A stretch of 40,508 nt of DNA, from contig JBOFUV010000134.1 in NCBI GenBank assembly GCA_051652765.1, forward strand, positions 1 to 40,508, in the 5' to 3' direction. The DNA is from Microcoleaceae cyanobacterium (GTDB lineage Bacteria; Cyanobacteriota; Cyanobacteriia; Cyanobacteriales; Microcoleaceae). How positions within the stretch are numbered: the stretch's first letter is position 1; each line of letters starts with the position of its first letter. Position numbers and translations under genes: made by a program. Below the pieces are notes generated by a model. The model worked only from the letters and a program-made list of their open reading frames with translations. It did no database searches and was not told where the DNA came from. Below, one piece after another: positions 5,758-9,234 of the stretch.

Positions 5758-6279
5758 TTACAGCGGCAAGCTTTTCAGTATGTACTCGGCCCGAGCAATA
5801 TCTCCCTCTGTCCCTTCGACAATCAGTAACACGCTACCCCTCGAAATCTGCTGACTATAGGCTTTGGCTTGCTCCGAGGTGAGTCCCAGGCCAATGAGTC
5901 CCCCCATCAGTCCCCCTGCAGCCGTGCAAACTCCGCCACTCAAAAGCGTGAACGCGATCGCAGAAGACAACATCAGTTGACCTAGACCCGGAAGTGCCAT
6001 GAGCCCAGCACCCAGCAGCAGCCCTGTGGTGCCACCCACAAGATTACCTAGAACAATACCTTTTTTAAGTCCAGTTGCAGTTCCTGTGATCGTTCCATAG
6101 GTGCTCGGGAGAAGCGGCAAGGACTGTTGTTGAGTCTCGGTTAATCCATGGCCTAACAGGAACACTTGGGCAATGGGAAAGCCTGAAAAAACGAGGTGAT
6201 CAAGGGATTGTCCTGCGGCCTCACGACTTGAAAACGTTCTGATGACTTGTCGGTGCTGGGTCAGAATAGCATTAAACAT
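5758..6279 (-). CDS. Glycine-zipper membrane protein (general stress protein 17M-like)
   Basis: GxxxG-rich hydrophobic segment, LPGLG, and 'GLGLTSEQAKAYSQQISRGSVLLIV' tail typical of this family. Confidence 0.75.
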   Translation of the reverse strand: MFNAILTQHRQVIRTFSSREAAGQSLDHLVFSGFPIAQVFLLGHGLTETQQQSLPLLPSTYGTITGTATGLKKGIVLGNLVGGTTGLLLGAGLMALPGLGQLMLSSAIAFTLLSGGVCTAAGGLMGGLIGLGLTSEQAKAYSQQISRGSVLLIVEGTEGDIARAEYILKSLPL

Positions 6280-6511: not shown

Positions 6512-6835
6512 TTAGGTTCGAGGTGCATACATAATCACTAAAACACCCAGCAGGGCAATCCAGCCCCCCAGCCAATCGTATTTGTCGGGGGTCACCCGAT
6601 CAATCCCCCAACCCCACAGGATTGATAGCACGATGAACACACCGCCGTAAGCTGCATAGACCCGCCCAAAGTTAGCAGTCTGCAAGGTGGGAATCACACC
6701 ATAAGCGACTAAAAACACAGCACCAATCACTGCCAACCAAACGCTTTTTCCTTCCCGCAGCCACAGCCAAAACAAATAGCCGCCGCCAATTTCACACAAT
6801 CCAGCCAGCACAAAAAACAGTAACGACTTGATCAT
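6512..6835 (-). CDS. ynfA: YnfA/UPF0060 small 4-TM membrane protein (SMR-like)
   Basis: [11 protein letters not shown] and [13 protein letters not shown] signatures; start overlaps PII stop (ATGA). Confidence 0.92.
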
Positions 6836-7233
6836 TTTTTCTTCAAGGGGTCACTCAGGGTTGCAGGCTCTTCAATCGTCAATGCAGCCTCGTTTTCTTC
6901 CCCTGTCCGAATGCGAATCGCCCGACTGACCGGAATCACAAACAGCTTACCATCTCCAATGGTTCCTGTTTTTGCCGTAGTCACAATAGTATCGACGACA
7001 TCATCCACCACGTTGTCATTCACTACAACTTCAATTCTAACTTTCGGTATAAAGTCAATGGTGAAGGGTTTACCCTCCATATCAAGTAGTCCTAAAAAGG
7101 CTAGGGGTCGGCCCTTTTGTCGGCCAAATCCCTTCGCGCCTGTCACGGTCATTCCCTGGACACCGAGTCTAACTAAGGCTTCTTTCACGGCCTCCAATTT
7201 ATTGGGCTGAATGATGGCAAGAATTAATTGCAT
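6832..7233 (-). CDS. PII-family signal transduction protein, non-canonical paralogue
   Basis: GMTV, GFGRQKG, [11 protein letters not shown] and RIRTGE motifs; divergent T-loop and C-terminal extension. Confidence 0.93.
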
Positions 7234-7334
7234 AAGATTGCGATTCCCTCGTCTTGGGGCTAATGATAAGTGATGTGAGAACAGCTTTGCGTGGGAAAAG
7301 CTGATGTTTCTGGTAGACCACCGTTCCTCAATGC

Positions 7335-8900
7335 CTAACGATACTTGGAAGAACTGACCTGATCGCGCAGAGGATGACTGAGATCAGCAGGCAAGAACAG
7401 GGGTCTGCCCTTAATCATGCTATCTCCAATCAAGTAAGCAAATCCGGCGACAAAGAACGCAATGGACAGCCCAATTGCGGTAATAGCATTGAGTCTTGTG
7501 CTTCCTGACCCCGTTAAACCATAATAAAAAATCCCGCATACCATCGCGAGATTGGTAATTAAGCCGAGGGTGGGAATCACAATGGTTTTAAAGACATTAT
7601 GCTCATCGTCCAACAGATGCTCTAAGGTTGCAATCAACGTGACTCCACAGGTAATCCCGTAAAGCATGAACGTGCCAATGTTGGACACCAGGGTCACAAT
7701 CGTCACATTATCCACACTTTGCACCGCATAGGCCCCAATCAACGCAGACAGTCCCGCCAGAAAATAGATTCCCATATGGGGTGTGTTGTATTGACCATGC
7801 AAGAACCCAAAAACCGCTGGAAGTTCCCGATCATTGCCCATGGCATAGCTGATGCGGACTCCCGTTGAAAGCGATGACAGGGCCGTTCCAATCAGTGCCA
7901 TCACCACAGTTCCGGCGATGATGATCTGCAACAAAAATCCATTCCCAAACAACAACTCATCCCCCAATATTTTCGCCATGTCACCAATTGGCGCACCGGA
8001 GGACAAGGCAGCCGCAAACCCCGTTACCGTTTGACCATCAACCGTTGCTGTATATTGATCTCCAATAAAAAAGTTGGCCGCAAAATATTCAAAAAAGTAG
8101 CAGATGCACGCCTGAATAAATAACGATAAAATTACACCTCTGGGAATATCGCGCTGAGGATTCACCGCCTCTCCAGCCATGGCAGTCGCAGATTCAAATC
8201 CAACCAGCAACAGAATCGCAATCGTCGCCTGATAAATCAGTCCCAACAAATCATGGGGAACTACGACACTGAGGGCATTCGCATGTTCATAATTGACATT
8301 GGGATGCCCCAACCGATAGACAATCATCAACAGTCCCAGAAAGGTTAGAGAAGTAATCTGAACAATGTTGATGATGATATTAATCAACGTAGAACCCGTC
8401 ACCCCAATCAGGGCAATACTTCCCACTAGCCCAGCAAAGATAAAGCAAATTAAGGCTTTACTGAACCAACCGGACGCAAAATCAGGATTAAACAATTGTC
8501 CAATGTAAACAATCAGCGTTCCCATGAAGCTGATCATGATGCCGGGATAAACCCAGTAATACAGGTGAGCCGCCCATCCCGTTACAAACTTAGCCAGACG
8601 CGCTAAACGAAAGTGCTTGTGTTCTTCCTTCGCTAAAATTGCCGCCTCAGCATAATAATAGGAACTCCCGGCTCCAGCATCCGGGTAAGCTTTGGAGAGG
8701 GTCGCATAACAACTGGCCGTGAGCATTGCAATCACTGTTGCCAGGGCGATCGCCGCCCACATGTTACGAGCAGAGGTAGGAGGAGCTTGAAGTTGGTAGG
8801 TTGTCCATAGGAAAGCGCCTGGTGCAATCAGGGCCATGGCATTGATCGTGATCCCTACCAAGCCAAGGGTTGGCTTGAGTTCACCACTTGAGCTAGTCAT
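7335..8900 (-). CDS. APC-superfamily amino acid/polyamine permease
   Basis: About 12 hydrophobic segments; AGAGSSYYY, VGFESATAMAGEAVNPQRDIPRG, RISYAMGNDRELP motifs. Confidence 0.93.
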   Translation of the reverse strand: MTSSSGELKPTLGLVGITINAMALIAPGAFLWTTYQLQAPPTSARNMWAAIALATVIAMLTASCYATLSKAYPDAGAGSSYYYAEAAILAKEEHKHFRLARLAKFVTGWAAHLYYWVYPGIMISFMGTLIVYIGQLFNPDFASGWFSKALICFIFAGLVGSIALIGVTGSTLINIIINIVQITSLTFLGLLMIVYRLGHPNVNYEHANALSVVVPHDLLGLIYQATIAILLLVGFESATAMAGEAVNPQRDIPRGVILSLFIQACICYFFEYFAANFFIGDQYTATVDGQTVTGFAAALSSGAPIGDMAKILGDELLFGNGFLLQIIIAGTVVMALIGTALSSLSTGVRISYAMGNDRELPAVFGFLHGQYNTPHMGIYFLAGLSALIGAYAVQSVDNVTIVTLVSNIGTFMLYGITCGVTLIATLEHLLDDEHNVFKTIVIPTLGLITNLAMVCGIFYYGLTGSGSTRLNAITAIGLSIAFFVAGFAYLIGDSMIKGRPLFLPADLSHPLRDQVSSSKYR

Positions 8901-8964: not shown

Positions 8965-8978
8965 GTATCGCAATGCAC
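8965..8978 (-). promoter_or_regulatory. Putative NtcA/CRP-family binding site
   Basis: Minus strand GTG-N8-TAC within TGTGCATTGCGATACA, 65 bp upstream of the APC-PII operon. Confidence 0.4.
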
Positions 8979-9106: not shown

Positions 9107-9149
9107 ACAGCTCTACCTAAACCTGTTTCGTGGGTTTAGATAGAGCTGT
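9107..9149 (-). terminator. Stem-loop downstream of tRNA-Val
   Basis: ACAGCTCTACCTAAACC / GGTTTAGATAGAGCTGT, 17-bp arms with one mismatch. Confidence 0.7.
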
Positions 9150-9162
9150 AAAGAACAATAAA

Positions 9163-9234
9163 TGGGCAGTACTGGATTCGAACCAGTGACTCTCTGCTTG
9201 TAAGGCAGATACTCTACCGCTGAGTTAACCGCCC
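9163..9234 (-). tRNA. tRNA-Val (anticodon TAC)
   Basis: Minus strand GGGCGGTTAACTCAGCGGTAGAG...CT-TAC-AA...GGTTCGAATCC...ACTGCCCA; 72 nt cloverleaf, CCA not encoded. Confidence 0.97.

Follow-up and report, generated by a model that had tools for sequence, protein, structure and literature searches.

The conserved unit at the locus described here is an APC-superfamily permease together with a PII protein, and not PII together with ynfA. The locus lies in a 40,508-nucleotide stretch of DNA from a Microcoleaceae cyanobacterium, referred to below as the window. Our preferred reading, to which we assign a probability of roughly 0.6, is that the permease imports a nitrogen compound, is induced by NtcA, and is closed by a dedicated PII protein when 2-oxoglutarate is low. 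The ynfA and YflT-like genes further downstream would be passengers in this explanation.

The permease, PII, and ynfA genes are co-directional, as the earlier note described: all three open reading frames are on the minus strand and have Pfam matches (Table 1). The permease and PII genes are separated by an intergenic gap of 101 nt, and the PII stop does overlap the ynfA start in an ATGA, shared at 6832-6835. YnfA scores over both of its cut-offs (PF02694, 159 against 25 bits; PRK02237 of NCBIfam, 152 against 114 bits). Table 1 adds to the three genes of the earlier note a fourth, co-directional gene and an NtcA-type box.

Table 1. Features of the permease-PII locus in the window.
Feature	Position	Strand	Description
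APC-superfamily permease	7335-8900	minus	521 aa, ~12 membrane helices; uncharacterised subfamily; PF13520 65 bits, PF00324 48 bits
PII, probably dedicated; long-T-loop subfamily	6832-7233	minus	133 aa; PF00543 106 bits
PII T-loop, residues 42-57	7063-7110	minus	P43, F46, G48, L49, F57 invariant
ynfA (UPF0060)	6512-6835	minus	107 aa; accessory gene, not a constant partner
YflT-like (general stress) gene	5758-6279	minus	173 aa; weak Pfam match below cut-off; accessory
NtcA-type box GTG-N8-TAC	8965-8978	minus	78 nt 5' of the permease start; putative binding site

A tRNA-Val(TAC) gene (9163-9234, minus strand) is located directly upstream of the module's promoter, and a 17-bp inverted repeat (9107-9149) lies just 3' of it. 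No repeat of the tRNA end hinting at an integration site was found between 4500 and 10200, and no plasmid record matches the permease at E 1e-20. Near the module, no Rfam element, riboswitches included, is found at gathering score (7 sources), and scans for sigma-70 promoters and terminators gave matches at chance level.

The permease lies directly upstream of this PII in 17 of 17 related loci, namely 12 of 12 other genomes, counted after removal of identical loci, and 5 of 5 metagenome loci that belong to this permease clade and have downstream DNA; the loci share ancestry, and the counts are not independent. One metagenome locus (L090), which ends 57 nt past the permease, was left out of the linkage count. 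With every locus linked, the pairing proposed in the earlier note outlives the prospect of unlinked homologues, and in the genomes searched this PII was never found apart from the permease. The PII is found in 4 named genomes, in 4 of 401 genomes at order level (this genome included), and in 8 of 401 at class level; the permease query found 3 of 401, again including this genome. As a proxy for linkage, 23 of 51 close permease clusters have a longest contig of the same size as one of 119 PII clusters. Cultured carriers among the named records are Pseudanabaena biceps PCC 7429 and Phormidesmis priestleyi ULC007, and Leptolyngbya sp. NIES-2104 is a cultured carrier of the permease.

Some relatives show features of their own. 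In a 2.5-Mb genome, two tandem long-T-loop PII genes follow the permease (L182:5187-6228), making mixed trimers possible. A short recombinase-domain gene and a CBS-domain gene occur after the module in two relatives (L181:8445-8795, L185:3337-3732), and one relative has a CRISPR array with 18 DR5 repeats ~3 kb upstream of the permease (L005:19-1326). In a metagenome-assembled genome, the permease has an in-frame TAA at codon 7 (L006:4357-4380) and the PII is kept, which indicates a pseudogene or an assembly error and counts against our preferred reading.

The three-gene neighbourhood of the earlier note is kept in its permease-PII part, whereas just 6 of 16 evaluable relatives have ynfA directly after PII. 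Furthermore, 114 of 401 class-level genomes have ynfA and 8 of 401 have this PII, and of the 12 closest ynfA loci 10 lack both permease and PII within 1.5 kb, two of them adjoining ppk2. On these counts we read ynfA as a resident of the neighbourhood. Of 16 evaluable relatives, 11 have a homologue of the YflT-like gene 3' of PII, and in 3 of these it is on the opposite strand.

The earlier note had also considered a PII dedicated to YnfA, that is, one regulating a small-multidrug-type or monovalent-cation exporter. Thallium(I) is a mimic of K+ and NH4+. UPF0060 proteins have been proposed to export thallium(I) (bioRxiv 072470), the ATGA overlap of the window recurs in L004 and L005, and YnfA-type genes reappear near members of the permease family in several clades (L007, L120, L123, L124, and L142). 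The counts given above, by which ynfA mostly occurs without the module, nevertheless leave this proposal unsupported, and we consider it highly improbable.

The PII protein exceeds the gathering score of PF00543 (106 against 25 bits), the closest folds to its model (pLDDT 71.5) are GlnB and GlnK, and it is 56% identical to E. coli GlnB and 80-90% identical to the best 119 other clusters. It falls below the NCBIfam cut-offs for GlnB/GlnK (PRK10858, 132 against 202 bits; PRK10665, 123 against 181 bits). Of the two PROSITE signatures (PMC5768801), it lies outside signature I, Y-[KR]-G-[AS]-[AE]-Y, in the T-loop, and misses signature II, [ST]-x3-G-[DY]-G-[KR]-[IV]-[FW]-[LIVM], through a Leu at the [IV] position; this miss is conservative, the position being Leu in 70 and Val in 6 of 76 members.

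The nucleotide- and 2-oxoglutarate-binding elements recognised in the earlier note are kept throughout the subfamily: G37-R38-Q39-K40-G41, K64, G93-D-G-K96, R107, and R109 are invariant in 76 of 76 aligned members. K64 is the equivalent of K58, and equivalents of the canonical R38, Q39, K58, B-loop GDGK, R101, and R103, whose roles are described in PMC6908673 and PMC10945777, are all present. In PII proteins, 2-oxoglutarate is liganded chiefly by K58 and Q39, and E44, R47, and F11 serve the binding of NAGK (PMC6908673). The T-loop is indeed six residues longer than in E. coli GlnB and other solved PIIs, with 20 against 14 residues between RQK and F.xK, and the alignment confirms that Ser49 and Tyr51 have no equivalent in it. 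The T-loop residues listed in Table 1 are invariant across the 76 aligned sequences, as are the subfamily-specific Q9 and G32, and F11 is replaced. Since the K58 and Q39 equivalents are kept and E44, R47, and F11 are gone, the protein seems to have kept its sensing site and to have lost the determinants for known targets. From the conserved Q39, K64, R38, R107, and R109, we infer that the protein binds ATP/ADP and 2-oxoglutarate.

The C-terminal tail of 15 residues is present in the window PII but is typical of one branch only, in which EEPATLS is conserved; in the others it is shortened, and the proteins end 7-12 residues past the core. Plant and algal PII proteins have a conserved glutamine-binding C-terminal extension, the Q-loop (PMC5768801).

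The canonical glnB that the earlier note sought elsewhere in the genome is located on contig C62 and has the T-loop QTERYRGSEY. The genome has three PII matches, making the window protein a third PII and not, as supposed, the second. The remaining one, on contig C153 (L003:1480-1818), is GlnB-like, with the T-loop QTEVYRGVKH and no Ser49. In the PII tree (45 rows, 112 columns, quick-mode and unrooted, with a weak backbone), the long-T-loop PIIs form one clade (98% SH-aLRT) that is not sister to this genome's GlnB, which pairs with the C153 protein (97%).

The consensus for NtcA is GTAN8TAC (PMC5714215). The box in the window has one mismatch to it, and the pattern was widened to GT[AG]N8TAC after this site had been seen. 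Of 19 loci, 15 have a box of the widened form between -180 and -50 of the permease, in 12 cases at -74 to -85, and 4 have none; the background is 74 of 1964 genes of this genome (3.8%). The strict pattern occurs in 11 of 18 relatives, its background in this genome being 34 of 1964 genes (1.7%). The loci with boxes are kin, so no p-value is attached to these counts. Further nitrogen genes are found nearby, with glnN (GSIII) and ppk2 upstream in 6 cyanobacterial relatives and glnA in one. In this genome, glnA has a strict box upstream; glnN is on a different contig from the module and has no NtcA-type box within 400 nt.

A second line of evidence comes from other bacteria, in which the two partners are fused. 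Locus L117 encodes a single 633-aa APC+PII protein (L117:5001-6902). After it come a free PII, amt, and a further PII, and the free PII next to the fusion could complete a mixed trimer. A search with the junction region of this fusion gave 332 matches. Among the best 120 (P0241-P0360; 612-660 aa), PF00543 is found in 120 and an APC Pfam domain in 118, and 120 of 120 match both the window permease (38-47%) and the window PII (36-48%). They come from several anaerobe-rich phyla, under names such as Brevinematales, Endomicrobiales, Desulfomonilia, Smithella, Nitrospiraceae, and Omnitrophica. The fused PII domain begins ~8 residues past the last membrane helix, at the permease C-terminus. A search without positive control of 381 + 3 genomes reached via another locus yielded no further fusion locus, so that L117 is our single source for the neighbourhood of the fusion.

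The fused PIIs keep Q39 in 98 of 118 and the K58 motif in 119 of 120 sequences. Their T-loops are polar and variable (mean hydropathy -1.05, 10-17 residues, 115 loops), whereas those of the free PIIs are apolar and of the same length in 75 of 75 (mean hydropathy +0.21). The tether may make a docking loop dispensable, and a free PII would need one. In the permease tree (77 rows, quick-mode, SH-aLRT only, unrooted), the cyanobacterial PII-linked clade (99%) and the fusion clade (100%) each lie among kinase-linked members. A single clade of fused and free-PII permeases is rejected (p-AU 6e-5, 25-row subset), and the fused and free PII types are separate in the PII tree too. One origin of the two kinds of PII partner being rejected, PII appears to have been recruited twice.

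Linkage and fusion point to a joint function of PII and permease, and do not give the direction of control. Could the two genes merely be switched on together? Both would then serve NtcA-controlled nitrogen scavenging, with PII acting on an unrelated target and making no contact with the permease. Nitrogen genes do cluster in these loci generally, and the vicinity of some distant permeases holds a canonical PII gene adjoining amt or glnA (L120, L143). Such co-regulation would, however, explain neither the strict adjacency in 17 of 17 loci, with no PII lacking the permease in the genomes searched, nor the fact that PII has been fused independently to permeases of this family, and we think it quite unlikely.

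The wider permease family was surveyed in a metagenome scan with the permease alignment, taking the best 79 of more than 585 loci. Downstream of the permease in 42 distant loci (<61% identity, at least 1.5 kb of downstream DNA; 28 shorter ones were left out), we find genes for a Ser/Thr kinase in 36, a PP2C phosphatase in 26, GS in 16, GOGAT in 8, PII in 7, Amt in 5, and a porin in 5. The usual order is permease-PP2C-Ser/Thr kinase-glnA, with permease-kinase-gltB in a branch that has a Ktedonobacteraceae member, and the family as a whole adjoins glnA, gltB, amt, and glnN. Among the neighbouring GS proteins, 5 of 7 are over the cut-off for type I GlnA and the GlnA score exceeds the glutamylputrescine synthetase score in 7 of 7; a polyamine-glutamylation context was accordingly rejected.

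The permease-PP2C-kinase-glnA operon is seen at L127, L129, L142, L143, L146, L154, L157, L161, and other loci, at times with a porin, an ANTAR regulator, or a PII. It is a candidate phosphorylation switch for nitrogen assimilation, and our search found no literature on it. In these lineages, the targets of the kinase and phosphatase may be GS or PII and not the permease. The alignment column that holds window residue 15 has a Thr in 33 of 33 kinase-linked rows, and this Thr is mostly absent in both PII groups; as one column picked from ~520, it is just a lead. In two loci, a PII with an atypical T-loop (GCGLQKG...WNTEFNINLL type) directly follows the PP2C gene (L112:2388-2726, L118:4356-4721). 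A stand-alone winged-helix (Trans_reg_C) gene occurs after the permease in L136, L137, L147, and L158, and in L158 it is twice paired with PII around glnA.

That the family's commonest operon carries a phosphatase, a kinase, and glnA also fits a transceptor, in which the permease senses or carries a nitrogen compound and signals inward by sequestering or releasing PII, the real targets being GS, GSIII, or another PII. In other lineages, the permease would steer the kinase and phosphatase instead. The free PII genes after PP2C in L112 and L118 and after the fusion in L117, as well as the glnN-ppk2 pair adjoining 6 cyanobacterial loci, agree with such signalling. Against it, a PII that is fused has no way to leave the permease, the free PII is missing the T-loop residues used on known soluble targets (E44, R47, S49, and Y51, with F11), and glnN of this genome is on another contig. 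We regard a transceptor as unlikely.

A broader form of the preferred reading, one undescribed family of APC-fold nitrogen importers shared across phyla whose cytoplasmic switch has been rewired three ways, as kinase and PP2C, as fused PII, and as free PII with a hydrophobic T-loop, is held tentatively, at somewhat worse than even odds.

The permease is over the cut-off of the AA_permease Pfam family and its model has a LeuT-type fold. It falls below all NCBIfam cut-offs, the best score among named APC families (APA, CAT, BcaP, FrlA, KimA) being 73 against 557 bits, and its ESM Atlas matches are 'APC permease' clusters only. The best sequence matches are CAT-type, and the best PDB match has an E-value of 4e-7 by sequence and 4e-14 by profile. 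The model (pLDDT 65, with TM1 and TM6 poorly resolved) resembles AdiC, KimA, GkApcT, and BasC about equally (Foldseek TM ~0.6-0.75; 13-19% identity). Assignment of a substrate from the fold was rejected on these tied matches, and profile matches did no better.

Motifs presumed to form the lining of the substrate site, TM1 NAMALIAPGAFLW, TM3 HLxYWxYPG, TM6 GFES, and TM10 SNxGTF, are invariant in kinase-linked, fused, and free-PII members (60 rows), suggesting one substrate class for the family. This substrate is likely a nitrogen compound, an amino acid or amine feeding GS-GOGAT. Ammonium is less likely, because amt genes co-occur in the same clusters.

The pairing in all 17 related loci and the fusion in other bacteria suggest that PII likely shuts the permease when nitrogen is plentiful. 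We propose that nitrogen starvation would raise 2-oxoglutarate and that NtcA would then turn the operon on, the permease bringing in an amino acid or amine for GS-GOGAT. PII, predicted from its conserved residues to bind ATP/ADP and 2-oxoglutarate, would respond to the effector level. At low 2-oxoglutarate, its trimer would dock on the cytoplasmic face of the permease and block the transport cycle, following the precedents of GlnK, which closes AmtB, and PII, which closes NrtBCD (PMC8042125, PMC10945777). The hydrophobic PLAFLGL loop may give partner specificity or membrane contact, and ATP with 2-oxoglutarate would release PII from the permease. Free PII would thus occupy the place taken in other lineages by the Ser/Thr kinase and PP2C or by the fused PII domain. 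Expression, ligand binding, contact, direction of control, and substrate are here inferred from genomic evidence.

Known APC carriers work as monomers or dimers. According to a 2023 review (PMC10710835), PII control seems to be confined to trimeric transporters, and this rule counts against gating of a non-trimeric carrier by PII. PII-NrtBCD is an asymmetric counter-example to it (PMC10945777).

The putative module would work like GlnK-AmtB, SbtB-SbtA, and PotN-PotABCD and appears to be a member of none. As in GlnK-AmtB and cyanobacterial PII-Amt1 (PMC10710835, PMC8042125), a PII that keeps the nucleotide and 2-oxoglutarate residues is co-encoded with a nitrogen importer, here a probable one. 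In contrast to GlnK-AmtB, the carrier has the APC/LeuT fold and is not a trimeric Amt, the PII gene follows the transporter gene, and the T-loop is apolar, six residues longer, and without R47 and Y51. SbtB-SbtA is likewise a cyanobacterial PII-family protein dedicated to an adjoining transporter, but the PII here is GlnB/K-type with Q39/K58, and its context is nitrogen (NtcA box, GS) and not inorganic carbon. PII-NrtBCD, PII-Urt, and PotN-PotABCD, the last a polyamine importer with PotN as its dedicated PII-like regulator, are cases of PII-controlled uptake of nitrogen compounds without three-fold symmetry (PMC10945777). These are ABC transporters contacted at their ATPase domains, whereas the permease is a single-chain secondary carrier. 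AdiC, GkApcT/CAT, BasC/LAT, and KimA share its fold, but only at the 13-19% identity given above; the invariant TM1 motif is the permease family's own, and none of them has a PII partner in the literature searched.

The PII-controlled transporters named in the available text of the 2023 review are Amt, Nrt, Urt, and SbtA, and never an APC carrier (PMC10710835). The earlier note did not recognise a PII-APC pairing as characterised, and in agreement with this we found none in the literature searched; older PII phylogenomic surveys (e.g. Sant'Anna 2009) could mention such neighbours or fusions. The PII-APC module thus appears to be a new form of transporter control by PII, and its genomic support is unusually strong.

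If true, PII control would take in the largest amino-acid carrier fold, and a LeuT-fold carrier would for the first time be gated by PII. Either a trimeric regulator would be forced onto a non-trimeric fold, or a trimeric APC carrier would be revealed, and the natural APC-PII fusion offers a single-chain construct for structure determination. PII sensing and protein phosphorylation would be interchangeable controls of one transporter. Phosphorylation-gated transport in bacteria is called scarce by the 2023 review (PMC10710835), and the kinase-linked sister operons provide a test of it. Finally, one class of additional cyanobacterial PII genes would gain a role through the module; what the additional genes do is described in a review as unclarified (PMC8042125).
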